From a virus: a stretch of 60,388 nucleotides of DNA. Of the stretch, positions 1 through 60,388 are shown in pieces. Each line of letters begins with the position of its first letter. Position 1 is the first letter of the stretch. Made by a program: the position numbers and the translations under genes. The notes below the pieces were generated by a model. The model did not search any database. It had not been told where the DNA came from and saw only the letters and a list, made by a program, of their open reading frames with translations. The stretch covers positions 1 through 60,388 of IMG/VR virus record IMGVR_UViG_3300045988_119780, one strand, 5' to 3'.

Positions 1-55
1 CCACAAAAACTAGTGATATAGGAGGCTAGACTACCGAATATCTAACAATCAGAAA
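1..55. repeat. Exact 55-bp terminal overlap with 60334..60388; assembly signature of a circular molecule
   Basis: Both ends read ccacaaaaactagtgatataggaggctagactaccgaatatctaacaatcagaaa. Confidence 0.95.
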
Positions 56-19054: not shown

Positions 19055-19498
19055 TCATTCATCTTCTCTCGTTGGCGATTCCCTTGCCATATACAAAGTT
19101 GCCAGGACCATAACCAAGTCACTAATAGCGCCCCATTCCATGCGTGGAGTAAATGGATGTGCAAAAAGTGAGTGCATCAATTCCGTTAACCCTAGCATTG
19201 TATAAAATGAGGAACTACTAGCAAGCAAAAAACGGTTCATTTTGTATGAACCGTGTTCTTGATATGCCCAGTGAATCATGCCTACCCCGATCAAGATTCC
19301 CGTATAGCCTACAATGTCGTCATTGAGGAAGTCGGTAATAAACCTTGGATGAGGTGGCCAAAAGAAATAGCGTGTGCTAACTGTGAGCACAACGCCATTC
19401 AAGATTAAGGAAAAGCCAACGATGCAGTGCCAGCCATTATTCAGTAGCCTTTTCATCGTTCTTCTTAGCATCTTGTAATTCCTTCTGGAGTTGTTCAA
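19055..19498 (-). CDS. Multi-pass membrane protein (second holin-like candidate)
   Basis: Four predicted hydrophobic helices; sits between the fibre and the holin. Confidence 0.5.
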   Translation of the reverse strand: MNNSRRNYKMLRRTMKRLLNNGWHCIVGFSLILNGVVLTVSTRYFFWPPHPRFITDFLNDDIVGYTGILIGVGMIHWAYQEHGSYKMNRFLLASSSSFYTMLGLTELMHSLFAHPFTPRMEWGAISDLVMVLATLYMARESPTREDE

Positions 19499-19588
19499 CT
19501 TGCACCTGCATCAGCAGCAGGTTGTACTGCAAATCATCAGTCAGCTTGCGATACTTTGCAATAACATCATTTGCGTCAATGTTCATAA

Positions 19589-19828
19589 TTAAGCCTCGCC
19601 TAATGCAGCCTTAACGTAAGCTTCCAGCTTCTTCAAGCCCAAGGTTGTGATCTGCGTCTTGCTCAAGCTATCCAGGGCCGCACCGTCAGTTAAATCTGAT
19701 GCCGTGATTACGAGGGAACCATTGATGTAGTCAGATGCTTCTGTACCACTCAAGTTAATAGTGATTGACTTAGTGCTACCGTCTGAATCTGAGAATTGGT
19801 AGCTAATGCCTCTTGCGTTAATCTTCAT
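19589..19828 (-). CDS. Small hypothetical protein (paralogue of 19842..20060)
   Basis: Shared pattern ...YINGSLVITASDL..G...D.L.K / ...YVNGRITINKSEL..GKTFDDMTPK. Confidence 0.45.
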   Translation of the reverse strand: MKINARGISYQFSDSDGSTKSITINLSGTEASDYINGSLVITASDLTDGAALDSLSKTQITTLGLKKLEAYVKAALGEA

Positions 19829-19841
19829 GATTTATTCTCCT

Positions 19842-20060
19842 TTATGCGAAAGTTAACTTACTCTTGACAAGTGCAATGACATCCTTTGGTGTCATGTCAT
19901 CAAAGGTCTTACCGCTTGCCAGTTCTGACTTGTTGATAGTAATTCGGCCATTGACATAATCGCCGGAACCATCGTTTGCGTAGCCGGATACGGAAATGGT
20001 CTCACCACTGATGATCTCATTGTCATATTTCGGCTCAATATTGTTAATTCTTAAATCCAT
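19842..20060 (-). CDS. Small hypothetical protein (paralogue of 19589..19828)
   Basis: 72 aa, tandem with its paralogue downstream of the fibre gene. Confidence 0.45.
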   Translation of the reverse strand: MDLRINNIEPKYDNEIISGETISVSGYANDGSGDYVNGRITINKSELASGKTFDDMTPKDVIALVKSKLTFA

Positions 20061-20139
20061 ATGTGTTCTCCTTTATAGTTCTCACACACTACAATTATAT
20101 CGTTCCGGAGGGGAACGTTTGTCTCTAATTAATCTCAAT

Positions 20140-26100: not shown

Positions 26101-26151
26101 AGCAGCTAAGCCGTTTGCTGTAACATTGACCGAAACTGGTCTGCTTTTCAT
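20140..26151 (-). CDS. Giant (2003 aa) tail fibre / receptor-binding protein with a C-terminal intramolecular chaperone domain
   Basis: Repeated coiled-coil heptads (SSLQQTA.GLTS..), four sugar-binding-like modules each ending EEG..AT.W.P.P.D, two knob-like domains, and an S74-type C-terminus (SRLSVKTAITKVTYDRAL...YDYRY). Confidence 0.8.
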   Translation of the reverse strand: MKSRPVSVNVTANGLAANQAQQTANQAVTSANKYKMAWDEANSETIAALDEAQKEFESNLAWVKSQIYEGQHQNDSAVASLRSDMESSWNSMSTVEESLYNSAITATSEVDSHLESLRVQNSLSLADLHSTANSLHDADTSLHADAESMRGSLADVASGLGKNIATTRDSLAAVDDSLHTATSETASELASTRDSLVAVDSDMRGGITQTRSDLATVRDSLKTATSEVANNLTNARNSLTAVDNDLRNGVKQASNDLSVAKTSLAATGNSLATATSELQRQTGQLSGSLSTANSMIMFNSNAIAEVKHTAEEISTTVSNIRVGGRNLLTNTRTLSGIWNGATETVDGFTVAKMTKTVGNWQDIVAWNGLTNIKPNTDYVLTFYAKASKQTRICSYLYNIGTDTVYADGSTPNTLTTDYQRFTVHFHTDAMPAGRKVNCLPVRVYDNVTVWVYGCQLEEGNTATQWQPNPDDTDQAISKVSQTADAIRADLTNTKGDVASVKATANSLQSQITDNKNNISSVKQTADSLTSTVGRMPAQWQQAINDKASAQVLTSNVDMNNLTTAGTYLIKDFSAKNAPISAWFMATVEATADRLRVVQRVKKDDANVAYERSNNKSGWTEWERVATGTDVSSIKQTMDSITTRVSNAEGNVSSLQQTASKLQSDLTNAKGDISSLQQTANGLTSRVGSAEGNISQLQQTANGLTSTVSNLHSGDRNYARNTFNKWQTLTGFTGATNYCTPDLGIFYPDDLQVGDTVTIGYTIKNSGIQSGKFQLQGPGNVTVWNAGSIGSPSYDISKVCPDGATTTLVQYLTLTADNLKNSKFNFRIRTDNFPAGTLSYKGLFVKKGNLATDWSPAPEDVNASISQIKQTADQIQAQVTSAKGDISSVTQTANAVKTDLVNTKGDVAAVKATADSLTAQMADANGNISQLQQTAKGLQSSVTDQSGKLSKLQQDADGLTVTVANGGQNLLRDSDTIPNWHGDTEKVDQFTVVKAKKNFDGDYDPIAWNGLTTIKPNTDYTLSFWAKADQPAKIFSFLYNICPDNGYSDGFTTTQLTTNYQRFEIHFHTQNFTAGSRTVNCLPMRINAKNVTHYIYGCKLEEGAMATAWSPSPGDIAQLKITADGLTSKVADTQGNVSKLQQTANSLQTQMTNTQKDVSSLKVTAGEISADLTNAKGDIARVKTTADSLTTSMTNAQNDISTLQHTATSITSTLSNGGVNLLSGTSDFSWGIVGWNGNPPHSIIDDGESLKDYKISLVAGASNQGFWWSGNNTLNQTYTLSFDAKSDNGKAKINIMGLEGNFLEDAPLTTDWVRYHISGKVTAGSHNWVTYFSTTDVDTVYVRKYQIEYGDTATPWKPSNGDISSLQQTAQGLTADMKDAKGNISSLQTTASQFTTSLQDTEKNVSSLQVTAKELDTQIKAVDGRASSIKETADGINARVSKIEGNNVVGSLLKLDGNEAGLGTYVNNKLIAGINTNPDGVTIDGKNIHLNGQTHIDDGVINASKITVYNTVGDNKGNQYLSAAWGQLNSTIGGKDDQGNSLWGSINQTNGKLTSYYQELKNDGSSTRSLIQQKADDILLAVDQKVQYSTYTVSASSPWDFDYTKSIYGNWFINGETSGNYFYNGPDGLKPWVYVQSRGSADGTRFVVTVWRDYDPTQYQRTWTGDHWTPWVMLPNSSNLVSAINLSPDGVTIDGKNIELNGNTTIHGQLNLLPTDQRYVDQRVQGFHNPWAWRDANVFAGSGGLQLRSTIVSQSYSNDNTSIYGLRGGSSAAITTLAPTYLKFTVYPSWNDVNNGFTNQLARTYIDAGRIETNDVWAGDFRLTGSKMRGLNGSLYVTNWNGTNFDNAGAVGFQVWSGIGLGKSTIYTPTSDLYVQIGNVGPLLGQSYSDAGKVDVHCNRVISQRANTVSSRLSVKTAITKVTYDRALMAVQNTDMYDYRYTSDETGQHYVSGIIDDIHDKPEYNMDPMLINKERTARIDANLLGYHQVVLQEILKRLDKLEAK

Positions 26152-28606: not shown

Positions 28607-30814
28607 TTAAAGCATTCTTGGTGCCCATTCAATCTTGTATGTTGCTCCAGTCAAGTCTCCATCACTCTTAAAATGCAGAGTGTTAATTTTCTGTGGAGTA
28701 AGTGTAGGATAGTTAGTCCCCCAAGAAGGCTGGGCTGCTACGTCGTTCTTTTCAACCTTAGTTTCAATCGAACTAAAGGTTACATGGTCGCCACTTGAGA
28801 TAGTTACGTTGGGATAGGTCTTAATATCCCTCGGTGCATACCTGCTGTAGTACTCTTGGTTCATTGCCCAGATTGAACAATGTGTCATACTCAATGAACA
28901 AGACCTATAGATTTCAAATGGAGTAACCGTATCTTCCATAATTGAGTGCTTAAAGAATCCACAAGCTACACGATTTAATGAAACGTCTCCAGTTGGAACG
29001 TTCGGCACTGGCGTACTCTTATACTTTGTGAATGACCAACCACCCTTCATGTGATTTCCATTGCTGTCCAGCTTGTAAGCTTCGATGTAGAACTTACCAA
29101 ACTCCCGGCTGAGAGTAACTTCAATCCACCCGTTAGTAAATGCGTTTTCCTCGTTCTTAGTCTTTTCAGTGTAATAACTGTATTGGTATGATGTTTTCTT
29201 TTCCGGCCTAGTAGTCGTGCTTGTGCTTGAACTAGAGTGAGAAGTAATTGCCCTGCTCTTGCCCCTTCTCTTTGTCTTAGAGGTTCGTGTGGTTGATGAG
29301 GTAGACCTTCTTGAAGTCTTGCTTACAACCTTCCGGACAATTGTTGTGATTGATTTGGTCTTGTATGGAACTCTAACGATCTGGTCGTTTCTCTTGGTCT
29401 GACCTCTAAGAGCAGCCTTGGAATCACTTACCAGAGTAAGCACATTTGCTTTGTCACTCCATGCACTACCAGGTTTACAAAATTGCATAATCAGAGTTGG
29501 GGCTTCACCAGTTGATGAATCTTTAATCCCAGCTCTAAAGAATGCGTTGTTGCTTGCATCCAGCAGCAGAAACTCAATATCGCCCATGGCTCTAGCATTA
29601 TGTGGGTGTCCATTGCCATACTTTGTATGGTGGATTCTAAAAGTGATCTTGAAATTATTCATGGTCGTGCTCGTATCAGCTGGAATAATCCCAGTGCTTA
29701 CGATTACAGGACCATACCACGGAGTACCATTAGGCACACCATTTTTGGTTGTTCTCATCACCTCGTCAGTCCCATAATTTTGGACGCTATAGCTCTTGCC
29801 GTCAGTCGCTTTTAATTCCTTGTTTTTAGGATATTCACTAGGTTTATAACCCTTTACCTTACGAGTGCCTACGGTAATCTTCGTACCCTCGGTCGTAACT
29901 GACCCGCCAATTGTTTGACCTACTGAATCGTGTCCCCATTGAAGGTTTGCAAAGTTCTGTGAGATAGTAGTTTGGTCAGTTACCCAGTTTGCCAATGTCC
30001 CCGATACTGAGTTAGCAATATCAACAAGATTAGTTGGATCCCACTTTGTTGGAATCAGATTGTTTGTTTCTGACGTACCACTTGAGCTAGACCAGCCACC
30101 TACTTCAGAGCTGTCATCGCCAATTGCCATGACACCACCACTGTCAGTAATAAAGCCTACATGATGAGCCGCCTTGTTGCTGGCGTATAAGACTTGGGCT
30201 TCAAACTCAGCTGGGGCTGTACCATCATTGTAATTAATCTTTACCTCTGCATTATCGTTTGAAGTAAACACGCCTTGTACTGTATGCATAGGTAGATAAG
30301 CCCGTGGGTCGGAACACTCAAACGTAATGTCACAGGTGAAGTCTCTGGTCTCATCATCATGCAGATATTGCGGAGCGCCAATACTAGTAACGTGACCAAT
30401 ATAGCGCTTGTGTGCATGATAGCCGAAGCCAGATACACTTTCATTACCAAATACTAATTCGTATTCTAGCGTTGGATTGCTAGGATTAAACTTGATAAAG
30501 GCCTGGGCAATATTTTCTCTGATTTCTTGCTCTAACCGTTCATCAGTCCCACACTTTGCAAAGATCTGAAAGTTGATTTCCCTGCTTTCATAATTCATGC
30601 CTTCATAGAAATTCCCGTACTTGCCTGGAATACTTTCATTGATGGCACTCATGGTTGGCCCAATAGAGATCGAACTTTTGACTGGCCGAACCTTAATATC
30701 CTTGATAAAAGACAGCCCGTTAATCCAAGCATCATCATTACTAATGGTGTCTGGATCAATAGGTGTGTGATGTTCCATATCAATCATGAGTTCACCCCTA
30801 AATTTAATACCCAC
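28607..30814 (-). CDS. Distal tail protein (evolved Dit with large insertions)
   Basis: 735 aa, directly after the tape measure gene. Contains a basic Ser/Thr tract SKTSRRSTSSTTRTSKTKRRGKSRAITSHSSSSTSTTTRP. Confidence 0.6.
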   Translation of the reverse strand: MGIKFRGELMIDMEHHTPIDPDTISNDDAWINGLSFIKDIKVRPVKSSISIGPTMSAINESIPGKYGNFYEGMNYESREINFQIFAKCGTDERLEQEIRENIAQAFIKFNPSNPTLEYELVFGNESVSGFGYHAHKRYIGHVTSIGAPQYLHDDETRDFTCDITFECSDPRAYLPMHTVQGVFTSNDNAEVKINYNDGTAPAEFEAQVLYASNKAAHHVGFITDSGGVMAIGDDSSEVGGWSSSSGTSETNNLIPTKWDPTNLVDIANSVSGTLANWVTDQTTISQNFANLQWGHDSVGQTIGGSVTTEGTKITVGTRKVKGYKPSEYPKNKELKATDGKSYSVQNYGTDEVMRTTKNGVPNGTPWYGPVIVSTGIIPADTSTTMNNFKITFRIHHTKYGNGHPHNARAMGDIEFLLLDASNNAFFRAGIKDSSTGEAPTLIMQFCKPGSAWSDKANVLTLVSDSKAALRGQTKRNDQIVRVPYKTKSITTIVRKVVSKTSRRSTSSTTRTSKTKRRGKSRAITSHSSSSTSTTTRPEKKTSYQYSYYTEKTKNEENAFTNGWIEVTLSREFGKFYIEAYKLDSNGNHMKGGWSFTKYKSTPVPNVPTGDVSLNRVACGFFKHSIMEDTVTPFEIYRSCSLSMTHCSIWAMNQEYYSRYAPRDIKTYPNVTISSGDHVTFSSIETKVEKNDVAAQPSWGTNYPTLTPQKINTLHFKSDGDLTGATYKIEWAPRML

Positions 30815-39511: not shown

Positions 39512-39730
39512 TTACTTGACTAAAGCCAAAAGTTGATCCTTGGTCAAGTTGGAAGCATAGCTGATGTTGTGAGCATCAAGGTAAGCCTTGATGTCTGCAA
39601 CAGTGTTTGCGCTAGTCGGCTTAGTATCACTGCCAGCTGAACTAATAGAACCGACAGAAGCGGTTGATTCACTAGTTAAGCTAGCTGACGTAGTGCCGGT
39701 TGAACCGCCATCAACCGGAGCTATTTTCCC
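39512..39730 (-). CDS. -1 frame C-terminal extension of the major capsid protein (72 codons, no start codon)
   Basis: Reads GKIAPVDGGSTGTTSASLTSESTASVGSISSAGSDTKPTSANTVADIKAYLDAHNISYASNLTKDQLLALVK: a Ser/Thr/Ala-rich linker followed by an HeH/SAP-like motif. Confidence 0.5.
   Translation of the reverse strand, partial: GKIAPVDGGSTGTTSASLTSESTASVGSISSAGSDTKPTSANTVADIKAYLDAHNISYASNLTKDQLLALVK
39696..39730 (-). promoter_or_regulatory. -1 frameshift signal: G GGA AAA heptamer, 5-nt spacer and 8-bp hairpin
   Basis: Heptamer at 39724-39730 in phase (GCG GGA AAA TAG). Hairpin CCGGTTGA / TCAACCGG at 39696-39718. Confidence 0.55.
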
Positions 39731-40899
39731 GCCGGTGCGCTCACGCTAGCAAGACGGAATGCGCTAGCCAACTTAATTCTGTGGTCAAGCCATGCAGTCA
39801 ATTGGAAGTAGTTGAAGCCAGTTTGGTAGTCCTTGTACTGTTCAAATACTGGAGTAGCAATGTCGTAGTTCAAACGGGCTTGCTTGAAGTCACCCACAAT
39901 TGGAGTGGTGGCCTTTGAAGTAAAGTGAACTGGAACACCAAAGATTTGTTCTGGTTGCTTTTCGTATAGAGTAGTTGAGCTGTTTGACAACTTGTCCAGC
40001 ATGTCGAAGTAGTCTGCACGAGTCATCAAAACTTGTGCGTTGTCTTGGTAAGCATCGTCCAGGTCTGCCAGGGCCTTGTTGATAGCCTTAAACATGTCAG
40101 CACCACTAATAGTCTTAATGCCGTTAACAGCGTTGTAGAATGACATGTGTTCTTCACCAGTTGCTGGGGAAGCTGACAGTGCGGCACTCAATTCACGTGC
40201 TTGCAATGCTGAGGACAATGCGTTGTTTACGTAGCCAACCAAGTTAGTGTCAGTACCATTCAAAATGGTTTCTGAGATACCTGCACGAACCTTAGTCTTG
40301 AAGCGGCCAAATTCAATTTCGCCACCCTTAACAGTTGCGTCCTTAGCTGCGGTCCCATCCTTAACTGCGTCAGTTACAACTTCGAAAGCAATAGTAGGCA
40401 ATACCAAGTTGGTTACAGTTGAAACTTCTTCCATTTCACGAAGTGGGTTAGTAGCCAGTGGTTCGTAAACAAGGTCGCTTGCAACGTTGATTGGCAGAAT
40501 GTCAGCACCATTAGTAGTGTCCTTGTCATCCTTCAATTCGTCCTTGACTGAGTGCCACTTTTCCAGGACCGCTGCATCTTCTGGCTTCATGGTCTTCCGA
40601 ATCCATGCTGCAACGATGGTTTCCTTCTTTTGTTCTGGGGTCATAATGACTTCTGCCTTAGGCTTGTTCACTGGAGTAGCCGCCTTAATTTCTTCGGCTG
40701 CGGCCTTTTCGTAGGCTTCGTTGATAGCTTCAAACTTAGCCTTCAAATCATCACGGTGCTTCTTAGCAGCATCGATTTGGTCCTTGTCAGCATTTGGGTC
40801 AACTGACAGATCAATAATGCGTTGTTCAGCATCTGCCAGGGTTTCCTTGAGGTTCAAACGCTGAGCGTTCAATTCATAAGAGTTCATCTTGTGAGCCAT
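39721..40899 (-). CDS. Major capsid protein (HK97-fold family), 0-frame product
   Basis: 392 aa following a ClpP-type prohead protease and a portal gene. Confidence 0.8.
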   Translation of the reverse strand: MAHKMNSYELNAQRLNLKETLADAEQRIIDLSVDPNADKDQIDAAKKHRDDLKAKFEAINEAYEKAAAEEIKAATPVNKPKAEVIMTPEQKKETIVAAWIRKTMKPEDAAVLEKWHSVKDELKDDKDTTNGADILPINVASDLVYEPLATNPLREMEEVSTVTNLVLPTIAFEVVTDAVKDGTAAKDATVKGGEIEFGRFKTKVRAGISETILNGTDTNLVGYVNNALSSALQARELSAALSASPATGEEHMSFYNAVNGIKTISGADMFKAINKALADLDDAYQDNAQVLMTRADYFDMLDKLSNSSTTLYEKQPEQIFGVPVHFTSKATTPIVGDFKQARLNYDIATPVFEQYKDYQTGFNYFQLTAWLDHRIKLASAFRLASVSAPAGK

Positions 40900-42941: not shown

Positions 42942-44279
42942 TTAGCGGAATGAGATAAACATGCTCGTGTCGGATTCTTCGTCCTTCTCCATAAGCATAT
43001 TGATTACTGTTGTGTGTGCGTCAAGAGCTGCGGCAAAACCGTCAATCTTTCTTGACATGCTAGTCTTGCTTGGCAACCAGTTATCGTTGCGGTCTTTTAC
43101 AAGCCGAACGTTATTGACGTACCACTTAAACATTGATTGGTTATTAAAGACAACCTTGCCGTCCAAAAACATTTCGTTCAGATTCTGCATTGGCCCGGAC
43201 AAAGTAATAGCCCCCTGTCTGGTAATGTTGGTGACAAACCCCTCCAGCTCCAAAGCTTTGTTTAATCTAAGGGCCTTGGCTGGGTCGTAGTTGATCTGCA
43301 AGATGTCGTATTTCTCAGACATCTCTTTGAACCAATCCAGTACGTACTCATAGTCCACAAAATCTTTAGGGATTATGGTTAGGTCTCCGGCTTCTTCCCA
43401 AGCTCTCATGCGTTCTTGATTATTGTCTCGTTCATAGCGAGGTTGCGGAACCCAAGAGTGCTCAAGGAAAAATACCGAACCGTCATCAAGTGGAAATTCC
43501 AAACAAGCGGCTGTAAAGTCTTCTGTTTCTGATAAGTCGAACCCGCCCACACATTGACGGCCTTCTAGTATGTCCAGGTCAATGCTGCGAGTGTTTTTCT
43601 TTAGCGTTTCTGGGGAGATAAAGCTAAGCTCATCTGTTTCTGCAAACAGATTGAATTGCTTGGTCATCCAGTCCGCTTTTTCCTTAGGGCTGCGTCTATC
43701 TTTCTTATAGTCACCGAGCATACCAGCTAAGTCCATCAGCCCAATATTTGGATTAGCCTTAACCCACATTCTAGGGTCGTCCATTTCCTTCTTATCATCA
43801 AGGCTGCAAAGGAAATAGAATGTACGCTCATCAACGTCATCTTCGTAATTGTTGAGACAGTCTTCACCTTGATCTATCATGTCAGCCAATGGCCCATCTA
43901 ATACATAGCCCGCAGTCGTGATGTACACGATCAAGGGTTGAGTGCGTGTCCCACGGGAACGTTTCATAACGTTAATCAAGGAATAGTCTCTATACTCGTG
44001 AATTTCATCGAACACGCCGAAATGTAAGTTTTCCCCGTCCTTGTCTTTCTTTTCTGCAGACATGGCAACGATTGAACCGTTGGTTGCTGGGAAACGAATT
44101 TCTGAACGTGTCGTTCTGAATCTGTCTGACAGCCATGGCGAGCTGTCAATCATGTTCTTAGCTTCTTGAAAAAGGATTGATGATTGTTTTTGTGAGTTCG
44201 CAAGGAAATATACGTTTGCTCCGTTTTCTCCGTCAAAGCCGACCATGTAGTCAGCCAGACCGGACTCAAGCGTAGTTTT
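42942..44279 (-). CDS. terL: Terminase large subunit, exon 2
   Basis: Begins KTTLESGLADYMV..., completing the Walker A motif. DEIHE Walker B-like motif and a nuclease half follow. Confidence 0.85.
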   Translation of the reverse strand, partial: KTTLESGLADYMVGFDGENGANVYFLANSQKQSSILFQEAKNMIDSSPWLSDRFRTTRSEIRFPATNGSIVAMSAEKKDKDGENLHFGVFDEIHEYRDYSLINVMKRSRGTRTQPLIVYITTAGYVLDGPLADMIDQGEDCLNNYEDDVDERTFYFLCSLDDKKEMDDPRMWVKANPNIGLMDLAGMLGDYKKDRRSPKEKADWMTKQFNLFAETDELSFISPETLKKNTRSIDLDILEGRQCVGGFDLSETEDFTAACLEFPLDDGSVFFLEHSWVPQPRYERDNNQERMRAWEEAGDLTIIPKDFVDYEYVLDWFKEMSEKYDILQINYDPAKALRLNKALELEGFVTNITRQGAITLSGPMQNLNEMFLDGKVVFNNQSMFKWYVNNVRLVKDRNDNWLPSKTSMSRKIDGFAAALDAHTTVINMLMEKDEESDTSMFISFR

Positions 44280-44505
44280 CATTTGTGTTATCGCACGGGC
44301 TTTTTATCCCGGCTTCTAGTAGTCGCCTACTAGTTCGGCATATATTTTCTGGGTTAGCCCAGGTGCGGTCTCGTGGAGGTATTATATTTGTTCAACCTCT
44401 ATGCTCTACAATGCTAACCAGCCTTTCGCAATCTGATTAGTTATCTCGGTGTCTTCTCAATGAGGTTTTCACCGATTTACCGCACTTTTACAACGGCAAA
44501 ACTCT
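44280..44505 (-). ncRNA. Group I intron (226 nt, no ORF) in terL
   Basis: Exon 1 ends in U (..AACGGU). An internal guide GCCGUU (44492-44497) pairs with AACGGU, with U.G at the splice site. The intron ends in G (44280). Splicing restores GRKNG|KTTL. Confidence 0.8.
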
Positions 44506-44973
44506 ACCGTTCTTACGTCCCATGAAGATCAGCGCTTCTCTGAATCTTCTTAGGCCAGTTTCCTTGTGAACCCAGCCAAACAGATTGCCAACTACAAAGT
44601 GCTGCCAGGGTTGGAGAACTAATCTTCGAATAGTCCCCTTACTTGGTGTTACTTTCTGTTCAATGAATCTGATTGGCCGCCATGCTTTTGCCTCATCAAA
44701 CCTCCACATGAAATTGGGGTCAGTTCTGCTGCGCTCTAGATCACGCAAAAATCGCATACAAGCCCGTTTAACTTCCTTGCAGGCTATTTGTACTCCATTG
44801 ACTACATCTCGTGCATACGCCTCTGTAGCAAGCGCAGGGAGTGGGGTAGAAATAACGTGGTATGCTTTACGCTCACGCTCCTTGTAATTCTTAACCCACT
44901 CTTCAATTCCCCTTGTGTTCATGTTCAGTGGATTATCTGGTGATTCAGCGTAATTCAACCTATCACCTTCCAA
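44506..44973 (-). CDS. terL: Terminase large subunit, exon 1
   Basis: PWQHFVVGNLFGWVHKETGLRRFREALIFMGRKNG is a typical terminase N-terminus. Unspliced, the ORF runs into a stop 6 codons later. Confidence 0.85.
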
Positions 44974-45849
44974 TCATTTAATAACTCTCAGAAGTAGTTC
45001 ATCATGCCGTTTGGCAGTTGCCGTGAATACTGTTTTCCGGCCTCCAAGATTTGCTACCACTTCTGTGCCGGGCAATACGCTATATTCGCTGATATAGATG
45101 TTCTTAGCGGGACAGCTCATATACCACTCGGTAAATGCTTCGCTGTTCCAATCTTGGACGTCAGCGTATTGCTTGGTATCACGGTAAGGTGGATCACAAT
45201 AAACAATATCGTCTGGATTGATGTCTAGATGTCTATAGTCCTGCTGAAGGCTTTCAACCTGCTGAAGGCTTTCAACCTGCTTTAAGCGCTCAATATTTTG
45301 CAGTCTATCTATTGGACTAGTCTTGATCTGTTTCTTGTAAGCCCGATACTTTTCACGTAGCGTTTTAAGGCCTTTAGTTGACTCGTAAAGAGAATCAAAT
45401 TGGGTATCAGTATCTCCACACAGCAGTGCCCTGGTAAGCAATAACTTTATCGGCTCAAGCTTCTTGCTATATAAGTAATCTTTCATGTTGTAACCGAAGC
45501 TGAAGCACATCAATACCACAGTGTCCGCTAGGCTCATGTCTTCTGGCTTTTTATCACGGACACTGAAAAATTGCTCCCTGGTTGTCATAGTCAGCTTTTC
45601 TGGATCAACCTTGTGACGCTTAACAATAATCTCGTCAAACAGTCTGTAAGCATTTGGACTCAAGTCATTGAATAGGACTTGATCGTATTTACCAGAGTCG
45701 GCAGCATGAAGTGTGACACCCCCGCCACCACCGAAAGCATCTATTAATCTATTGCCAGCTGGCAACGCATTAATAATCTTGCCGGCCTTTGCACCCTTGC
45801 GCCCCATTCTGGGAAAGCCATTTAGCCATTCTCTGCTTATTGCTCTCAT
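44974..45849 (-). CDS. Orphan N6-adenine DNA methyltransferase (Dam/D12-class-like)
   Basis: Motif I IDAFGGGGG and motif IV YCDPPY. No restriction partner in the window. Confidence 0.8.
   Translation of the reverse strand: MRAISREWLNGFPRMGRKGAKAGKIINALPAGNRLIDAFGGGGGVTLHAADSGKYDQVLFNDLSPNAYRLFDEIIVKRHKVDPEKLTMTTREQFFSVRDKKPEDMSLADTVVLMCFSFGYNMKDYLYSKKLEPIKLLLTRALLCGDTDTQFDSLYESTKGLKTLREKYRAYKKQIKTSPIDRLQNIERLKQVESLQQVESLQQDYRHLDINPDDIVYCDPPYRDTKQYADVQDWNSEAFTEWYMSCPAKNIYISEYSVLPGTEVVANLGGRKTVFTATAKRHDELLLRVIK
45241..45276. repeat. 18-bp perfect tandem duplication inside the methyltransferase gene
   Basis: ctgctgaaggctttcaac x2 with a degenerate third copy; encodes QVESLQQVESLQ. Confidence 0.9.
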
Positions 45850-45852
45850 CTC

Positions 45853-46251
45853 CTACCACACTTCTTTATTTGGCTTAAATACTTCTGTCTTCTTGTCTGG
45901 CTTGATGTAGCGAATTTTCTTTTGAAGCTTCATACCCTTTTCACGGTGTAAGCGGTTATGACACTGCCGGCACACTGTGATTAGGTTGTCCATACTGAAA
46001 GCCTTGTATGAGTCATCTCCAGTTTTTCTGAGTGGTTCAATGTGGTGTACAGTATCGCCTAACGTATAGCGGCCCTCGGCCTTGCAAATCTGACATAGGT
46101 GCATGTCTCTTTGAAGTACCTGCTGTCTAATTGATCGCCAGGATGCTGAACGGTAGAACTCATTGTTGTTAGTCCCAAACCGTTCGCTCTTCTTTTCTTC
46201 CTTAGCGACCTGTTTGCCATTCCATACTTTAGGCTTCTTGTCCGAACTCAT
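45853..46251 (-). CDS. HNH endonuclease
   Basis: CQICKAEG...HHIEPL...CRQCHNRLH. The start is uncertain (the track ORF extends to 46305) and the gene overlaps the terS 3' end. Confidence 0.85.
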   Translation of the reverse strand: MSSDKKPKVWNGKQVAKEEKKSERFGTNNNEFYRSASWRSIRQQVLQRDMHLCQICKAEGRYTLGDTVHHIEPLRKTGDDSYKAFSMDNLITVCRQCHNRLHREKGMKLQKKIRYIKPDKKTEVFKPNKEVW

Positions 46252-46735
46252 CGAAATCATCGCCTTCCGCCAGTGCTTCCCTTTTAGCCTTGGATTGAAG
46301 GTCATCTTTTAAGTTCAAGGCCAGGCTGGTTCTTGACGTAGGCATAAGGCCTAGCTTATCTGCCAATTTGTCAAGCTCCGTGTTTAGTTTGATCTTTAGA
46401 GAAAGGAAACCAGAAGGATCGCCCTTCTCATTTGATCGGCCAGACTTTTTTAGTTCGTCATTACACTTCTTTAGCTCACTCATCATGTCAGCATAGCGGG
46501 CAATGGTGGTTACGTCAGCATTGTTGTATAGCGTAGTAGACTTGAATGTGTCCACAGTTTCTTTGAAAACTTTTTTGCCATAGGCATCTAACCATGTAGG
46601 AACTTTAGACAGCTTGTCATCATCAACAGCTAGCAGCCGTTCATTCTTGATGTTCTGTTTCAATTCCTTCTTGGTCTTGCGGTTTGGATTACCGTTTACC
46701 AAAGCTACTAGGCTTGACTGGATTCTCTGTGCCAT
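46229..46735 (-). CDS. terS: Terminase small subunit (P27-family-like)
   Basis: 168 aa. VPTWLDAYGKKVFKE...LGLMPTSRTSL pattern, upstream of terL. Confidence 0.6.
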   Translation of the reverse strand: MAQRIQSSLVALVNGNPNRKTKKELKQNIKNERLLAVDDDKLSKVPTWLDAYGKKVFKETVDTFKSTTLYNNADVTTIARYADMMSELKKCNDELKKSGRSNEKGDPSGFLSLKIKLNTELDKLADKLGLMPTSRTSLALNLKDDLQSKAKREALAEGDDFDEFGQEA

Positions 46736-46761: not shown

Positions 46762-46787
46762 AAAAAGGACAGCCGCTATAGCTGTCC
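46762..46787 (-). terminator. Intrinsic terminator after gtfB
   Basis: Minus strand GGACAGCTATAGCGGCTGTCCTTTTT. Confidence 0.7.
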
Positions 46788-46837
46788 TGTTAATTTTCTA
46801 TACTACAAATATACCATCTTTGTCTGCCCTGTTTGTC

Positions 46838-48187
46838 TCAATTTTGTCTCATGAGAACGTTTGATAAAACTTCCTGGAAATGCTCAGCTGTTTCTGACCC
46901 AGCATGGTCTTCTTGCAAGCTAAGCAGGCGAGCATATTCTTTATGATCCGATAATTCTTTGATTGCGGTAATCATTCCTGCTGCATCCCCGGCCGCAAAA
47001 ATGTTTTCCGTTGCTACATACTCCGGTGAATGCAAAGCATCCTTGAAAGCCAAAATCAAAAGGCGATTTTCAAAGGCCTGCCGTCCGGCCTGCAAAATTT
47101 CATTAGCATAGTTGATATCCAAATAGAGGTCATCTTCTTCTAGCAAGCGGGCAACATCCTTTTTCCTGGCGACCGGATAGAGGGCCACGTTTTCATAATG
47201 CCCAAAGCTCATCAGCCGACTGGACATTTCCGTCACGGCAGCAATATCAAAGTGCCAGTCTGGCAAGCCTTCGACCAGCTGCTTGAGGCATTCAATATTG
47301 TCAGAATTGGTTAAGATTAAGGCTCGCTTTCTGGCTTGGCTTTCCCGCTTAAACGGGTAAACAATCCCCAGGTATTTGACCTTCTTAGCCATCTGACCGT
47401 TCAGTTGCCCAGTAATCTTCTTATATTCGCCCCTGTCTTGGACAATCACCCTGCTGCCTGGCAGATTATCTTGTAGAAGATACAGCATATTTTCCGGCAC
47501 GCTTCCTTGATTGTTTTCTTGCCAGAAAAGAATATTGTGGGACGGTTTCCTTTTTAACTGAATCAAGGTGAAAAGACAGTTACCCAGAGAATTAAAGATA
47601 ACTTCATCCAAGTTAAAGTCCGCTTCTTCCAGATAATAGGCCGTCAGCTGATTAATGTTCTTGAAGTTATAAATTTTCCCATTCGGCATATTGTAAGTAT
47701 AATCCCCAGTCAAATGGTTATGAATCAAAACTTCCTGGCCGTTGGAAGCAAAATAGCTAGTCATAGCCTGCCGACCGTTTTTGTCGCAGCTGGTTACTGC
47801 ATACTTCCATCCCCACTGGTTGTAGTGGTCAATCACCCGAACCTGTCCGGACTTATCTAGCCATTCAACCTGGCTAACCTGCCGAAGGTTGTTGCTTTTC
47901 CAGTAGCGGATATCGGCCCGCTTTTGCCCATGATCCAGGACTTCCCCGCCTTGCGAGTCTGCCTTGATTTCCCAAAACTTTGGCAGGTCAATTTCGTTAA
48001 AATAACGGGGACGACCTGCAAATTCAGACCCAGCTAAACGCAGGAAATACCTAAGGGGTGATTCGACACCATCTGGCAAAAAACCATTGTCTTGAATCAC
48101 CACACTGGGGTGCTGGTAGCCAGCCTGCTTCAGCGATCTCTCAAGGTCCTGGCTTTTTTGATTGTAATTGAAGAAAAGATTAATCAC
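46838..48187 (-). CDS. gtfB: GtfB-like partner/chaperone subunit of the GtfA-GtfB protein O-GlcNAc transferase
   Basis: 449 aa. N-terminus (M)INLFFNYNQKSQDLERSLKQAGY matches my memory of GtfB N-termini. GTG start overlaps the gtfA stop by 8 nt. Confidence 0.65.
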   Translation of the reverse strand: MINLFFNYNQKSQDLERSLKQAGYQHPSVVIQDNGFLPDGVESPLRYFLRLAGSEFAGRPRYFNEIDLPKFWEIKADSQGGEVLDHGQKRADIRYWKSNNLRQVSQVEWLDKSGQVRVIDHYNQWGWKYAVTSCDKNGRQAMTSYFASNGQEVLIHNHLTGDYTYNMPNGKIYNFKNINQLTAYYLEEADFNLDEVIFNSLGNCLFTLIQLKRKPSHNILFWQENNQGSVPENMLYLLQDNLPGSRVIVQDRGEYKKITGQLNGQMAKKVKYLGIVYPFKRESQARKRALILTNSDNIECLKQLVEGLPDWHFDIAAVTEMSSRLMSFGHYENVALYPVARKKDVARLLEEDDLYLDINYANEILQAGRQAFENRLLILAFKDALHSPEYVATENIFAAGDAAGMITAIKELSDHKEYARLLSLQEDHAGSETAEHFQEVLSNVLMRQN

Positions 48188-49685
48188 AGTGCAACTCGCT
48201 TTCTATAACCTCTTTCCATAGCTGGGCAACCTGCTTGGCATTATACTTGTCAGCTATTGCATAAGATTTCTCTGACATAACGGCTAAGTCTGATGAGAAA
48301 AGCTTGACAATCGCCTTGGACATTTCATCGATGTACTCTGACACGGTTGCTAATCGATCATATGGCAACAGCAAACCATTCCCCTTGTCAGCAATAAAGG
48401 TTTGGTTTCCATAGCGGACATCAAACCCGACCATAGCCAAGCCTGACCCCACTGCTTCCATCAAGGTAAGACCGAATCCTTCGCTGGTTGAACAAGTCAA
48501 ATAGGCTTGGTAGTGCTGGTAGATATTGTCCATCTGCTGGTGACCCTTTAAGCGAACATAGTCCACAGCTCCAACTTCCTTAATCAAGTCTTCCAGCATG
48601 GCCCGTTCTGAACCTGCTCCATAAATGTCCAAGCTAAGTTTCGGCAATGATTTCTTAGCTTTAGCCACAGCACGAATTGCCCAGTCCAAATGCTTCTCGC
48701 TAGCTAAGCGTGAGGCCGTCACCAGACTGAAAGGCTTGCGTGAGACGAAATCTGGCTTCTTCAATTCTTTTAAGCTGCCCACTGGAATTACATAAATCTG
48801 GGGCTTCTTACCCTTATACTTTAAGAACTGTTCTTCCATCAACTTTTTCTGCAAGTCAGTGGCCGTTACATAAAAGTCAATCTGGTCATCATGCTCGAAC
48901 GTATATTCATAGTAATTGTTCCAAAGGATGGTAGTGTCATTGGTCTCGGCTTCACTGAAGTGCTCAGCGTGAATAACCGTACCCACTTGTGCCTTACCAC
49001 GGTTTTCTAGAATTTCCTGGCCCTGGCCTCCAGCCCGGTCAATCAAGATAATGTCTTCTTTGGAAAAATTAAGTTCCTGCAGCATCTTGATTAAAAGCTC
49101 ATGCTTGGAGTACAGAATTTCATCTTTGAACTTGAAGACTTCTTGGTCACCATCGATGATTTCATCATAAGCGGCCGTTCCATCTTCATTGTAAAAGCGG
49201 CGCTGGTAAAGCTTGGCCCGATTGTTTTCTGGAGCGTAAAATTCGCTGCAGTAGCGACCATAACTATAGTAGTCTTTTCTGACCAAGTTAGCACCGGACA
49301 CGTATTCAACCCGATCAACGATGTCTGATTTCAAATCCTTCAAATAAGCCGTAGCCCAAAAGTCATTAGCAAAGATATAGCGAACCGCCTTGCCTAAGTG
49401 CTTACACTTTATAATTGGTGGTAGAACCTTTTCCAAGTCGCCCAAAGTAAAGCAGCCTGGCCGGATTTCAAAGTCAGTGAAAAAGGTATACAGCCAAATG
49501 ATCTCCTTGTCTTCGAAGCCCAGATTCCTGGTCAAGTGGGCAATGTTTTCATAGCCAATCCAATCAGTAAAAATGAACTTGGCCTTTACTCCCAATTTAC
49601 GAAAAATATGGCCCCGATATGCCTGTGCATATTCAACCCCACTAGAGGCCCAGCCGATTCCCTTGTTGATGCTGTAAACTGTCAT
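48180..49685 (-). CDS. gtfA: GtfA-like GT-B (GT4) glycosyltransferase of the accessory-Sec / protein O-glycosylation type
   Basis: N-terminus MTVYSINKGIGWASSGVEYAQAYR is characteristic of GtfA. GT4 motif CSTSEGFGLTLMEAVGSG. AGGTGA SD before the ATG at 49685. Confidence 0.75.
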   Translation of the reverse strand: MTVYSINKGIGWASSGVEYAQAYRGHIFRKLGVKAKFIFTDWIGYENIAHLTRNLGFEDKEIIWLYTFFTDFEIRPGCFTLGDLEKVLPPIIKCKHLGKAVRYIFANDFWATAYLKDLKSDIVDRVEYVSGANLVRKDYYSYGRYCSEFYAPENNRAKLYQRRFYNEDGTAAYDEIIDGDQEVFKFKDEILYSKHELLIKMLQELNFSKEDIILIDRAGGQGQEILENRGKAQVGTVIHAEHFSEAETNDTTILWNNYYEYTFEHDDQIDFYVTATDLQKKLMEEQFLKYKGKKPQIYVIPVGSLKELKKPDFVSRKPFSLVTASRLASEKHLDWAIRAVAKAKKSLPKLSLDIYGAGSERAMLEDLIKEVGAVDYVRLKGHQQMDNIYQHYQAYLTCSTSEGFGLTLMEAVGSGLAMVGFDVRYGNQTFIADKGNGLLLPYDRLATVSEYIDEMSKAIVKLFSSDLAVMSEKSYAIADKYNAKQVAQLWKEVIESELHCD

Positions 49686-49860
49686 GCTAATCACCTAGAT
49701 CGTTTTTAAAAGAGAAAACAAATTCGTCATTTGATTTACTTTTTATATTAACACCTTTGAGTGGCCCACTCGTTTCATTTTTTTCTCAATGGCCGGCCCT
49801 CCGAAGTCCACACTTTGATTAGGGTTTGGTATAGACCAATAGTCATTGAAAACTATGAAA

Positions 49861-50091
49861 ATGTGACTGAAAGAAAGGCTGTGTGACAGATGCGTCACAC
49901 TTACAGCCATAAGGGTTGTAAGCCATTTCATGTGACACTTGCAGGCCAAATTCCATATATAATATAGAATTCTTCTTCTTCTATATAGAGAAGTATAGAG
50001 AAAAACAGAGAATGCGTCACACTAAAGTGGCTTGAGCCTTACTCTCCAAAGGGCTGAGGGGCATGTGACACATCTGTCACGCCTGTCACGG
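49861..50091. repeat. GTGAC-palindrome element, copy B (paralogue of 16590..16820)
   Basis: GTGAC-N6-GTCAC at 49883-49898 and 50065-50080. Central TATATA..(CTT)3-TATATAGAG. Collinear conserved blocks with copy A, roughly 60 percent identity by eye. Confidence 0.7.
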
Positions 50092-50273
50092 GATGCAGCT
50101 GAGGCCAGGTGATTTTTCAAAAACGAAAATTAAGGTATCTCTGAGTCATTCACGTCATCGTGTGGATGATTGTCTTAAAATAAATCCAAAAAGCCTGTAC
50201 GGGGCTTAAAATCGATTCTAGGGCTATCTGAGCAATCACCTTCCCCACCCCGTGTGGAGATCCCTGCGGGATG

Positions 50274-50308: not shown

Positions 50309-50722
50309 AATATAAAGATTTAAAAATTAACACCGCAAGAATCAGCAGCCTGGGAAAAGTTTTCCTGGGCTGTCTTGCGTTTTGCCTGGATTGTGCTAGT
50401 ATGGAGATGAACGCAATAAGTTCGCTGAGGTAAGCGCACCCTGTATAGAAAACGGGGTGTATAGCAGACTTACCAAAAACGAATTTATTGCGTGTTCCCC
50501 CCTGGCGCCCGCTCCCCAGCACGGTAAAGGTAATTTTTACCTATAGGGGGGTACTTTACATATCTTTTATTATGTAAAGTTCACGGGTGCTTAACATATT
50601 CTTTATTATGTAAAGTAAATATTAATAGTATGCTATCGAATACTATATAACAGTAATAAGATAATAAACGTTATTTAATATAATACCATAAACAAAAAGC
50701 ACGCTTTTGAACGTGCTTTTTT
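50309..50722 (+). ncRNA. Candidate structured non-coding RNA of about 410 nt (unit R0)
   Basis: Runs promoter to terminator with no credible ORF. Long hairpin CGCAAGA..CAGCC/GGCTG..TCTTGCG, a possible C6/G6 long-range pair, and twin 10-bp hairpins at 50553-50616. Confidence 0.45.
50694..50722 (+). terminator. Intrinsic terminator (A-tract on the 5' side, so possibly bidirectional)
   Basis: aaaaagcacgcttttgaacgtgctttttt. Confidence 0.65.
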
Positions 50723-59022: not shown

Positions 59023-60303
59023 CTAATTTGTTTGTTTCTTTGTTTTCTTGCCTTTGGCTTTCTTAGCATCTGTTGTATCATGCTGACTCTGATACGACGG
59101 ATTAGGCACGCCGCTGACGTACATCGTTCCCAGCATTTGAATGTTCATTGCGGCTATGCGGTCGTCATTAGAGCGGTAGCCGCATCTGTTACAGATATAC
59201 ATGTGCAGCTCATGGTCACGATTTTCTTTCAAAATCTGCCCACACTTAGGACAGCGCTGACTGGTATAGTGAGCGTCTACCTCGACAACCTCGCTGCCAT
59301 TCTGATGTGCCTTGTACTTGAGCTTTTGTTCCAGGTCATAGAAAGACCAGGAATGGTGCTCATATCTATTTTCCTTCTTACGGCTATAGACCGTATCAAA
59401 AGTTACGTCAGTAAGATCCTCAAGCACAAAGAGAGTATCAGCTCCGTAGTGGTTGACGAGTGTCTTAGACAAGCAGTGATTGTAGTCGCTCATCCAGCGG
59501 TTCTCTCGTTGACCAATCTTGCGAATGCGTCTCTTTGAGTTTCTGGTATTTGTCATCTGCAGATGACGTCTCAGCTCTTTATAGTGCTGACGCTTTCTGG
59601 CAATCGTCTTCCCGTTGTGGAAGAAAGTTTTGCCTTTTTCGTCATAGCAGGTAACGATCTGGCGAAGTCCTCTGTCAACCCCAACTACATGACGAGTCTG
59701 CTCAATCTCGTAATCTGGAAAAGACTTGGTTGCGCTGATATGCATAAACCAGTGCTTGCCAGATCTAAGGATTTTGGCAGTGCCAAAAGTCCATTCGTCA
59801 TCCAGATATTTTTCAAAGCCTGGCATGGCAATTTCGCATTCAATCCGCCCGTTAAGGGTATTGACAGACACGATCTTGCCATTCTGCTTGAAGGAATAAT
59901 CCCGATCTCTTACTTCATCCAATTGCGGACGCTTGAAAAAAATCGGCTCCCAAAGCCAGTCAAGATCACGTTGGACAGTGTAGTAGCCCTTGTCTTTCGG
60001 TGCATTGATGTCGTGAAATTTATAAGGCTTCTGACCAAGCTGCGTTTTAACAGACTTGTATCTGGCGATAACGGTCTTCAAGACAGACTGAGCCATTTGT
60101 GATCTGAGGTTGAATTTTTGTCGTAAGTCAGAGTAGACAGCTTTGTTCAGCTTTGCTTGGCCGAGTTCAAAGTCATGCTCAAAAATGTATTCAGATGCAA
60201 AATTACAACCTTGTCTATAAGCTTCCATGCTGTCTATCAGTGATTTAGCATTTTCGGAACTGGCAACTTTGATGTGAGCTTTAATAGTCAAAGAAATATC
60301 CAT
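59023..60303 (-). CDS. tnpB: TnpB RNA-guided endonuclease (IS200/IS605 family)
   Basis: RuvC triad contexts VGVDRG, FVLEDL and SNDDRIAAMNI. Zinc finger CPKCG...CNRCG. Start at MDISLTIK with a GAAGGGAGG SD. Confidence 0.9.
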   Translation of the reverse strand: MDISLTIKAHIKVASSENAKSLIDSMEAYRQGCNFASEYIFEHDFELGQAKLNKAVYSDLRQKFNLRSQMAQSVLKTVIARYKSVKTQLGQKPYKFHDINAPKDKGYYTVQRDLDWLWEPIFFKRPQLDEVRDRDYSFKQNGKIVSVNTLNGRIECEIAMPGFEKYLDDEWTFGTAKILRSGKHWFMHISATKSFPDYEIEQTRHVVGVDRGLRQIVTCYDEKGKTFFHNGKTIARKRQHYKELRRHLQMTNTRNSKRRIRKIGQRENRWMSDYNHCLSKTLVNHYGADTLFVLEDLTDVTFDTVYSRKKENRYEHHSWSFYDLEQKLKYKAHQNGSEVVEVDAHYTSQRCPKCGQILKENRDHELHMYICNRCGYRSNDDRIAAMNIQMLGTMYVSGVPNPSYQSQHDTTDAKKAKGKKTKKQTN

Positions 60304-60327
60304 GATTTGCCTCCCTTCACTAAAAAT

Positions 60328-60336
60328 AGCATACCA
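60328..60336 (-). promoter_or_regulatory. Extended -10 TGGTATGCT upstream of tnpB
   Basis: Minus strand TTTTTGTGGTATGCTATTTTTAGTGAAGGGAGG. Confidence 0.4.
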
Positions 60337-60388
60337 CAAAAACTAGTGATATAGGAGGCTAGACTACCGAATATCTAACAATCAGAAA

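Follow-up and report, generated by a model that had tools for sequence, protein, structure and literature searches.

We describe here a pair of genes, gtfA and gtfB, which is carried by a temperate phage of Lactobacillus delbrueckii and is assigned by profile to the two-protein O-GlcNAc transferase hitherto treated as part of accessory Sec (aSec) adhesin loci. The pair lies on the minus strand of IMG/VR record IMGVR_UViG_3300045988_119780, a metagenome scaffold (ENA ERZ28577934, scaffold_338) whose whole length of 60,388 nucleotides was analyzed and is called the window in what follows; the coordinates of the features discussed are collected in table 1. Comparison with bacterial and phage relatives points to a single capture of gtfAB from the aSec locus of a chromosome of the L. 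delbrueckii lineage, and carrying the pair is now the norm in the group of phages resembling L. delbrueckii phage JCL1032. As to what the enzymes act upon, the explanation that we favor, with a probability of about 0.4–0.45, is virion self-glycosylation: the main acceptor would be a Ser/Thr-rich linker that a programmed −1 frameshift may append to a fraction of the major capsid subunits.

Family identity and phage setting of gtfA and gtfB

An earlier note on this DNA had recognized the two genes from their N-termini and a EGFGLTLMEAVGSG motif, and the six-frame list of open reading frames (ORFs) has both ORFs with these features. The 501-aa ORF begins MTVYSINKGIGWASSGVEYAQAYR and contains STSEGFGLTLMEAVGSG; its start is an ATG at 49685 with GGTGA 6 nt upstream, while an alternative GTG at 49694 would add 3 residues (504 aa). 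The 449-aa ORF, with N-terminus (V/M)INLFFNYNQKSQDL, starts with a GTG at 48187 and overlaps the stop of gtfA by 8 nt. The hidden Markov model searches that the earlier note had proposed bear the assignment out, since both models are exceeded with wide margins over end-to-end alignments. In NCBIfam, the model TIGR02918 ("accessory Sec system glycosyltransferase GtfA") gives 708.5 bits against a curated equivalog cut-off of 574.6, with residues 1–495 covering positions 1–498 of the 500 in the profile, and TIGR02919 ("accessory Sec system glycosylation chaperone GtfB") gives 488.8 bits against 338.3, with residues 1–441 covering profile positions 1–438 of 438. GtfA is further matched by the Pfam families PF22145 (GtfA_EBD, the extended beta-sheet domain, DUF1975) with 124 bits and PF00534 (Glycos_transf_1) with 79 bits; the Pfam GT4-conflict model stays at 23.2 bits, under its cut-off of 26. 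Against the structures of Streptococcus gordonii Gtf1 and Gtf2, GtfA aligns over its full length with 5e9t_A (E=1.8e-163) and GtfB over residues 1–445 with 5e9t_B (E=2.7e-97). The equivalents of R328, K333, E404, and E412 are kept in the alignment of GtfA to 5e9t_A, the last two spaced as EX7E; we take R328 and K333 to be the Arg and Lys that bind the UDP phosphates, and both glutamates to be those of the EX7E motif of the GtfA family. By these profile and structure matches, the two ORFs are assigned as GtfA and GtfB, equivalogs of the aSec proteins.

The window is a temperate L. delbrueckii phage, so the pair is phage-borne, and three lines of evidence agree with the earlier note on this point. 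A direct repeat of 55 nt joins the two ends of the window (1..55 = 60334..60388). It stems from the overlap of a circular assembly whose true length is ~60,333 bp, permuted relative to cos (~50511). Holin, endolysin, two accessory ORFs, the attP region, integrase, an ImmA-like protease, repressor, and anti-repressor are consecutive, and the abutment of the lysis genes on attP and integrase is the attP (excised) configuration. Finally, the window is collinear with JCL1032, a phage of L. delbrueckii subsp. lactis, at ~90–95% nucleotide identity over most of the genome (74–97%, block by block). On the minus strand, the early genes run to 51143 and are followed by ~1.4 kb of non-coding DNA (with the cos equivalent and a GTGAC-rich element), gtfA, gtfB, a terminator-like hairpin, terS, an HNH endonuclease, a D12-class methyltransferase, a split terL, and the genes for portal, protease, and capsid. 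Bases 1–797 of JCL1032 align to window 50511–49717, and the cassette thus lies between cos and terS, flanked by phage genes.

The absence of other aSec genes from the window, which the earlier note had reported, was borne out. When SecY2, Asp1–3, and SecA2 of the nearest chromosomal locus were searched by tblastn, none had a match in the window, where only GtfA matched; no serine-rich repeat protein (SRRP) occurs in any frame of the window, which has only two short Ser/Thr tracts (~36–70 residues), both in virion proteins. Because linkage to secA2, secY2, asp1–3, and an SRRP was tested and not found, the locus is not an aSec system.

Origin, maintenance and local layout of the pair

The closest relatives of the window GtfA, with 89–95% identity, are all in phage or prophage contexts, and all those examined at ≤88% identity belong to the canonical chromosomal locus, ordered secY2-asp1-asp2-asp3-secA2-small ORF-gtfA-gtfB-SRRP. 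The chromosomal loci examined come from isolates and metagenome-assembled genomes named L. delbrueckii (L006–L008, L014–L016), from L. nasalidis (L009), and from other Lactobacillus (L011–L013, L053, L054). In protein sequence, phage and chromosomal enzymes differ by ~12%. At the nucleotide level the homology is a single block (table 1), which holds gtfA, gtfB up to its final ~22 nt, and the 26 bp ahead of gtfA that carry the ribosome-binding site; those final nucleotides of the window gtfB are phage-specific, and the last ~7 residues of GtfB are replaced. In a neighbor-joining tree of gtfA+gtfB, all phage copies form one clade (100/100 bootstraps), which is the sister of the aSec clade of the L. 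delbrueckii lineage. Because the phage copies are monophyletic and the homology forms one block, we infer a single capture from the adhesin locus of the host lineage, followed by diversification inside phages. The donor-type locus carries a 2177-aa SRRP next to gtfAB. In the L. delbrueckii lineage, chromosomal aSec loci are flanked by lysA/aminotransferase and yitT, and some genomes show their decay: gtfB is split in L006 and L007 (11499..12842), while L017 (10001..12842) has lost the adhesin together with everything from secY2 to secA2 and has a split gtfA.

Inside the phages both genes are maintained under purifying selection, as follows from their intact ORFs and a low ratio of non-synonymous to synonymous substitution (dN/dS). 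Among phage copies this ratio is 0.07–0.10 for gtfA and 0.085–0.15 for gtfB, with dS up to 0.12–0.64, about equal to the ratio between phage and chromosome, and both genes are intact in 12 of the 12 gtfAB-bearing phage or prophage contigs that have gene tables. Nor is the cassette peculiar to the window, as it is the norm for the JCL1032-like phage group: the exact TerS of the window occurs in 287 blocks of the assembly collection, and gtfA-gtfB stands directly upstream in all the contigs read (23/23). Proteins from isolates named L. delbrueckii subsp. lactis also fall in the cluster of phage-type GtfA, and the record that encodes one such protein is 2.18 Mb long.

JCL1032 itself is without gtfAB. 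Its match to the window ends at 49717 and resumes at 46938, ~100 bp inside the 3' end of gtfB, with 129 unrelated bp at the junction, and its small "ORF2" region still encodes ...RLLSSQEDHAGSETA..., which is the C-terminus of GtfB. As this remnant of gtfB is retained, JCL1032 is a deletion derivative and not the ancestral state; as it is viable without the pair, gtfAB is accessory, not essential. A second phage address was found in two ENA metagenome contigs, L056 and L057. There, a stretch that matches window 22119..19368 at 91% identity, with the gene of a tail protein and three small ORFs, comes before gtfA-gtfB (3190..6031 in L056), and late-region ORFs of phrog_14733 and phrog_16410 come after. 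The GtfA of these contigs has 89% protein identity to that of the window and belongs to the same clade, and their gtfB has a 3' end of the chromosomal type (447 aa). By these comparisons the pair has been retained through relocation, with both known phage addresses, adjacent to terS and in the tail-fiber region, in late-gene territory.

The earlier note had described a discrete cassette with its own terminator, preceded by a GTGAC element (B) and directly upstream of terS. The latter two statements are correct (terS starts at 46735), and a hairpin with a T-run does follow gtfB, but a terminator is annotated at the equivalent site in JCL1032, which has no gtfAB, and this places the hairpin in the phage backbone rather than in the cassette. 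The GTGAC element, of ~230 bp, has two copies with the common pattern GTGACG-N17-TATAyy followed by TATATAGAAGAAGAAGAA, and GTGAC..GTCAC palindromes on each side; the core of element B is GTGACG-N17-TATACT at 50020..49992. The other copy, element A, precedes a 328-aa and a 165-aa ORF sitting between endolysin and attP, and by their sequence the two elements resemble a promoter/operator under common regulation. Neither a tRNA nor an Rfam family at gathering score turned up in the ~1.4 kb of non-coding DNA before gtfA. Between the terminator and the start of terS there are only ~30 nt, with no room for a separate terS promoter, so terS transcription must pass through gtfAB or begin inside it. 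The position of terS fits late co-transcription or antitermination, and also a constitutive short transcript ending at the terminator.

Table 1. Coordinates of the features discussed, in window numbering
Feature	Position	Strand	Evidence or remark
gtfA, catalytic GT4/GT-B O-GlcNAc transferase subunit, 501 aa	48180..49685	-	TIGR02918, PF22145, PF00534, 5e9t_A
gtfB, non-catalytic partner (predicted acceptor binding and GtfA stabilization), 449 aa	46838..48187	-	TIGR02919, 5e9t_B
Captured segment, homologous to chromosomal aSec loci	46860..49711	-	blastn versus L006-L008, L014-L017; single block, 83-86% identity
Major capsid protein, 392 aa, frame 0	39721..40899	-	PF05065 Phage_capsid; 93.6% nucleotide identity to JCL1032 major head protein region
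Candidate programmed -1 frameshift signal	39696..39730	-	heptamer G_GGA_AAA (39730..39724), TAG stop, 5-nt spacer, 8-bp hairpin
Capsid -1 frame C-terminal extension, 72 codons: Ser/Thr-rich linker plus HeH domain	39512..39730	-	Ser/Thr scan, PF12949
Basic Ser/Thr-rich tract in Dit-like distal tail protein (735 aa); the weaker of the two candidate acceptors	29153..29368	-	Ser/Thr scan
terS, small terminase and first gene of packaging; follows the cassette directly	46229..46735	-	PF05119 Terminase_4
Terminator-like hairpin with T-run, between gtfB and terS	46766..46788	-	sequence scan
GTGAC element B, promoter-like, upstream of gtfA	49870..50130	-	sequence scan
GTGAC element A, second copy	16590..16810	-	upstream of 328-aa (phrog_6160) and 165-aa (SHOCT domain) ORFs
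cos-equivalent position	50502..50511	-	JCL1032 cos annotated at bases 1-10

Candidate acceptors and competing explanations

Every frame, and every ORF of 60 aa or more, was scanned, and genuine phage proteins yielded only two Ser/Thr-rich tracts, one in the capsid extension and one in the distal tail protein (Dit). The endolysin was also considered, as a target comparable to the autolysin Acm2, and was discarded for having no Ala/Ser/Thr-rich tract. The Dit tract does not discriminate among the explanations, because it is equally present in JCL1032.

The extension of the capsid protein consists of a Ser/Thr-rich linker (GGSTGTTSASLTSESTASVGSISSAGSDTKPTSANT, at about 39602..39709) and a HeH domain (PF12949, 29.9 bits vs. 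a cut-off of 28.9), and the extended subunit is predicted to exceed the frame-0 form by roughly 7 kDa. Several observations together support its synthesis by −1 frameshifting. The slippery heptamer and the stop recur in 12/12 relatives, where the −1 frame also stays open; the hairpin behind them, with stems CCGGUUGA/UCAACCGG (39718..39696), appears in the minimum free energy fold; variable sites in the HeH part are biased toward third positions of the −1-frame codons (1/1/14), a bias that, with the HeH match, counts among the supports; and the −1 frame has no canonical start codon before codon 62, on which ground independent translation of the extension was rejected. In the Ser/Thr linker the variable sites are spread over the codon positions (10/6/8), its sequence varying freely while the composition is kept, which is taken as a further support. 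The ORF9 annotated in JCL1032 at the extension is in frame 0, not in the conserved −1 frame. More distant capsid homologues in three IMG/VR contigs (L033, L034, and L035, 39–49% identity) have −1-frame C-terminal extensions at the same site. Two of them, L033 and L034, use CCCAAAA for the slip, and the parts appended in the three are beta-rich and, by eye only, Ig-like. By analogy, this suggests that the capsid extension is a surface-display module.

The linker also shows a possible connection with the presence of the enzymes. The core of the tract, STSESTASVGS[T/I]SSAG, is invariant across gtfAB-positive phages except for one position in the window (LTSES for STSES), and it resembles the ASESESTSV-type (SESTSV/ASES) repeats of the adhesin next to the donor-type gtfAB. 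In JCL1032, without gtfAB, the core has three substitutions, each of which removes a hydroxyl residue, and the tract retains 8 Ser versus 11–12. This loss is suggestive, with n=1, of a link between the capsid linker and GtfAB.

The favored explanation can accordingly be laid out as a series of conditional steps, of which the reactions are those of the characterized family (PMC6973325, PMC5796085). The pair would be a phage-domesticated, working GtfA-GtfB priming O-GlcNAc transferase; after its capture it diversified as it spread among temperate phages of the JCL1032 type, with purifying selection acting on both genes. In the cytoplasm of the infected or induced cell, GtfB would hold a disordered Ser/Thr-rich acceptor segment while GtfA would move GlcNAc from UDP-GlcNAc onto Ser/Thr hydroxyls. 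The main acceptor would be the linker, appended together with HeH by the −1 frameshift to a fraction of major capsid subunits, and the basic Ser/Thr tract of the Dit-like tail protein is a possible second target. The product would be single O-GlcNAc residues, as in S. aureus, because Pfam and PHROG scans of ~35 window ORFs, a part of the total, found no second glycosyltransferase. The sugars would cover a flexible linker exposed on the surface of the virion and probably make it resistant to protease. Characterized GtfAB enzymes act in the cytoplasm on low-complexity Ser/Thr regions, which O-GlcNAc shields from trypsin (PMC5796085, PMC6973325), and O-GlcNAc on the Ala/Ser/Thr-rich domain of L. 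plantarum Acm2 protects this autolysin from protease (PMC5796085); by analogy with Acm2, protease protection of the exposed linker is the likely benefit. The frameshift extension, the differences in the JCL1032 tract, and the cassette positions, with the glycosyltransferase genes in or next to a structural or late region in both cases (upstream of terS here, in the tail-fiber region in L056/L057), tilt the balance moderately toward the virion over the host surface. In its most specific form, that JCL1032-like L. delbrueckii phages O-GlcNAcylate their own virions with a GtfAB captured from an adhesin pathway, on the capsid linker and perhaps the Dit tract, this proposal is a shade less probable than virion self-glycosylation as such.

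This proposal needs to be qualified by a number of observations that weigh against it. Plaque-forming JCL1032 shows that gtfAB is dispensable for assembly and infection, and it retains the capsid extension and the Dit tract despite the loss of the pair. The correlation with serine loss comes from this one gtfAB-negative genome, since a scan of the metagenome collection with the capsid protein returned one new short contig only. The capsid tract has ~36 residues, versus hundreds to thousands in natural serine-rich repeat (SRR) substrates, and the HeH domain could bind DNA inside the capsid, the exposure of the extension on the outside being argued by analogy. As to the strength of the frameshift hairpin, the whole 96-nt stretch folds not significantly better than shuffles (z = −1.58), and the scans for another glycosyltransferase took in ~35 of the window ORFs, a fraction of them. 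With a promoter-like element ahead of it and a terminator behind, the cassette resembles an autonomous moron, and the same GTGAC element also heads accessory genes at the classical site of lysogenic conversion.

These last features lead to the main competitor of self-glycosylation, namely lysogenic conversion, in which GtfAB expressed from the prophage would O-GlcNAcylate Ala/Ser/Thr-rich proteins of the host (autolysins, surface or mucus-binding proteins) before their export and so alter autolysis, protease resistance, adhesion, or the accessibility of phage receptors. An aSec-unlinked pair of GtfA/GtfB type in L. plantarum glycosylates many cellular proteins at their cytoplasmic stage (PMC5796085), the copy of the GTGAC element between endolysin and attP is at the usual moron site, gtfAB is dispensable for lytic growth in JCL1032, and prophages with gtfAB are widespread in L. 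delbrueckii genomes. Yet both phage addresses are in late virion-gene territory and in late orientation, and neither is the lysin-int junction where the window phage keeps its other cargo; moreover, no host target can be named from the data, and no PADLOC defense or exclusion model matches GtfA or GtfB at E≤0.01. We regard this as a serious alternative, though less probable than self-glycosylation. Host remodeling and self-glycosylation, the two functions put forward in the earlier note, are not separable by computation, and the acceptor is inferred. Support of a host adhesin, in which the phage pair would prime a host SRRP, for instance by complementing decayed chromosomal gtfA or gtfB or by boosting glycosylation, could apply to lineages that retain an aSec locus but is a good deal less probable. 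It could draw on the SRRP beside gtfAB in the L. delbrueckii-like donor lineage, on the broken chromosomal copies (gtfB in L006/L007, gtfA in L017), and on the small divergence of the phage enzymes from the chromosomal ones, but in L017 adhesin and export genes are gone altogether, and L. delbrueckii goes unmentioned in the SRRP review that was searched (PMC6973325). Furthermore, among the 15 members listed of the 202 in the aSec SecA2 cluster, none is on a contig >250 kb, unlike the phage-type GtfA found on the 2.18-Mb L. delbrueckii record, which is a weak indication that typical lysogens are without aSec.

Two further explanations fare worse. A prophage-encoded wall-teichoic-acid glycosyltransferase, TarP, exists in staphylococci, and the phage protein might similarly be a teichoic-acid or polysaccharide glycosyltransferase masking the phage receptor. 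Some databases do label it "poly(glycerol-phosphate) alpha-glucosyltransferase", and L. delbrueckii phages use glucosylated lipoteichoic acid, whose glucose is a receptor determinant (PMC3870949). However, such a placement was not borne out by the profiles, as TarM, SdgA/B, and other GT4 models stay far below their cut-offs on the window GtfA (SdgA 122 bits and SdgB 110 bits, vs. cut-offs of 800), whereas the GtfA equivalog cut-off is exceeded, and TarM-type structures align only to the C-terminal glycosyltransferase domain (~185–493) with 55–60 bits, versus 548 bits for Gtf1. The obligatory partner GtfB is also present, translationally coupled and under selection, and the nearest relatives adjoin SRRP genes in aSec loci; this explanation is thus very improbable. 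Even less credible is that the pair is inert passenger DNA from illegitimate recombination, heading to loss. JCL1032 has deleted almost all of the cassette, but the ORFs are intact in every gtfAB-bearing phage contig examined, dN/dS is 0.07–0.15 across a dS of 0.12–0.64, and the pair was kept after relocation to a second genomic position.

Other genome features, related systems and significance

Besides the cassette, several features of the minus strand of the window stand out, most of them differences from JCL1032. A 438-aa ORF of TnpB type (59023..60339), with OrfB_IS605 and Cas12f1-like TNB domains, lies within a segment of ~1.6 kb missing from JCL1032, which makes it an apparent IS200/IS605-family insertion in the early region. 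The gene for a D12-class N6-adenine DNA methyltransferase (44974..45849), between HNH endonuclease and terL, is inserted as 875 bp that neither JCL1032 nor prophages L002–L004 have. The terL gene is split by an insert of ~225 bp (44280..44504), between ORFs 44488..44973 and 42942..44282; JCL1032 has the same split, annotated as a joined CDS, while prophage L003 is without the insert and has TerL as one 584-aa ORF. This insert is intron-like and matches no Rfam family. A 2003-aa coiled-coil Gp58-like tail protein (20140..26151) stands in place of the ORF20–ORF23 adsorption and host-specificity region of JCL1032, with only partial similarity of ~80%, which suggests a swap of a host-range module.

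The architecture of two proteins is the same as in the aSec Gtf1-Gtf2 systems for GspB of S. gordonii, PsrP of S. pneumoniae, and SraP of Staphylococcus aureus (PDB 5E9T, 4PQG). The window pair shares with the streptococcal and staphylococcal GtfAB the extended beta-sheet domain, the EX7E motif, and overlapping gtfA/gtfB frames, and with the S. aureus cluster, where GtfA and GtfB are the only glycosyltransferases (PMC6973325), the lack of any further glycosyltransferase found beside it. It differs from them in its place between cos and terS of a window without secA2, secY2, asp1–3, or adhesin, and in the replaced end of GtfB. A closer parallel in function is the Gtf1/Gtf2 pair of L. plantarum WCFS1 (originally GtfA/GtfB), which like that of the window is away from any aSec locus. 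Its cytoplasmic substrates are ordinary proteins, Acm2 among them, in which short low-complexity Ala/Ser/Thr regions receive a single HexNAc that gives protease protection (PMC5796085). That pair is, however, chromosomal and acts on host proteins, and it is likened here by description, whereas the window pair falls in the aSec equivalog clade and derives from an aSec locus of the L. delbrueckii lineage.

The closest functional precedent of the favored explanation is the glycosylation of actinobacteriophage virions, in which phage-encoded glycosyltransferases modify the phage's own structural proteins, as described for mycobacteriophages by Freeman et al. (2023, Cell Host Microbe 31:1216), a study cited in PMC12582341 and PMC13313380. 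In the window, virion glycosylation is hypothetical. The glycans of the actinobacteriophages reportedly sit on C-terminal extensions of capsid and tail-tube subunits. These systems involve other enzyme families, other hosts, and more complex glycans, and we know of no GtfB-like acceptor-binding partner described for them. Capsid variants produced by −1 frameshift have a precedent in gp5A/gp5B of L. casei phage A2, with the slippery sequence C CCA AAA. The window is like A2 in that its major head gene carries, at its 3' end, an X XXY YYZ heptamer that would yield a capsid subunit extended at its C-terminus, and unlike it in that the extension is a Ser/Thr linker plus HeH and co-occurs with a protein O-glycosyltransferase. 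Temperate phages also bring envelope glycosyltransferases for lysogenic conversion, such as TarP in S. aureus and gtrABC in enterobacteria, which act on teichoic acid and O-antigen, respectively; the window pair, in contrast, is assigned by profile to a protein-glycosylation family.

The earlier note had known of no GtfAB-type system acting on a virion of Lactobacillales, and our searches of phage records, IMG/VR, and the literature are consistent with it. No genuine phage with GtfA-GtfB was found by tblastn among 50,697 deposited phage records. The sole matches there, records named "Staphylococcus phage SA ... Kay", were rejected as host DNA: one of them, "Staphylococcus phage SA 1306 Kay" (L052, OR844989.1 65877..97379, UNVERIFIED_ORG, 282 kb), carries the full secY2-asp1-3-secA2-gtfA-gtfB locus and is therefore S. 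aureus chromosomal DNA filed as phage. A scan of IMG/VR with GtfA gave no match, one with the capsid protein gave only JCL1032 and distant capsids, and no paper noting or studying phage-borne GtfAB was found in the literature. Public databases already auto-label these prophage proteins as GtfA.

In broader terms, a common temperate phage group of a major dairy species keeps the pair while some chromosomal copies decay. Its relocation and its maintenance under purifying selection argue that GtfAB is useful to phage or lysogen without the adhesin and the export machinery, and JCL1032, as a near-isogenic natural deletion variant, offers a control for testing either the virion or the host as target. 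If host proteins are the target, this would be a new kind of lysogenic conversion in starter cultures, by protein O-GlcNAcylation. If instead the virion is the target, these phages would have, as far as our searches show, the first protein-glycosylated virion described in Firmicutes phages and, by the same searches, the first priming enzyme of aSec origin turned toward a structural protein of a virus, one that imitates the SRR unit. Phage-encoded virion glycosylation would then extend from actinobacteriophages to Lactobacillales, tied to programmed frameshifting, and might influence adsorption, recognition by the immune system, and how stable the particles are in milk, cheese, and the gut.

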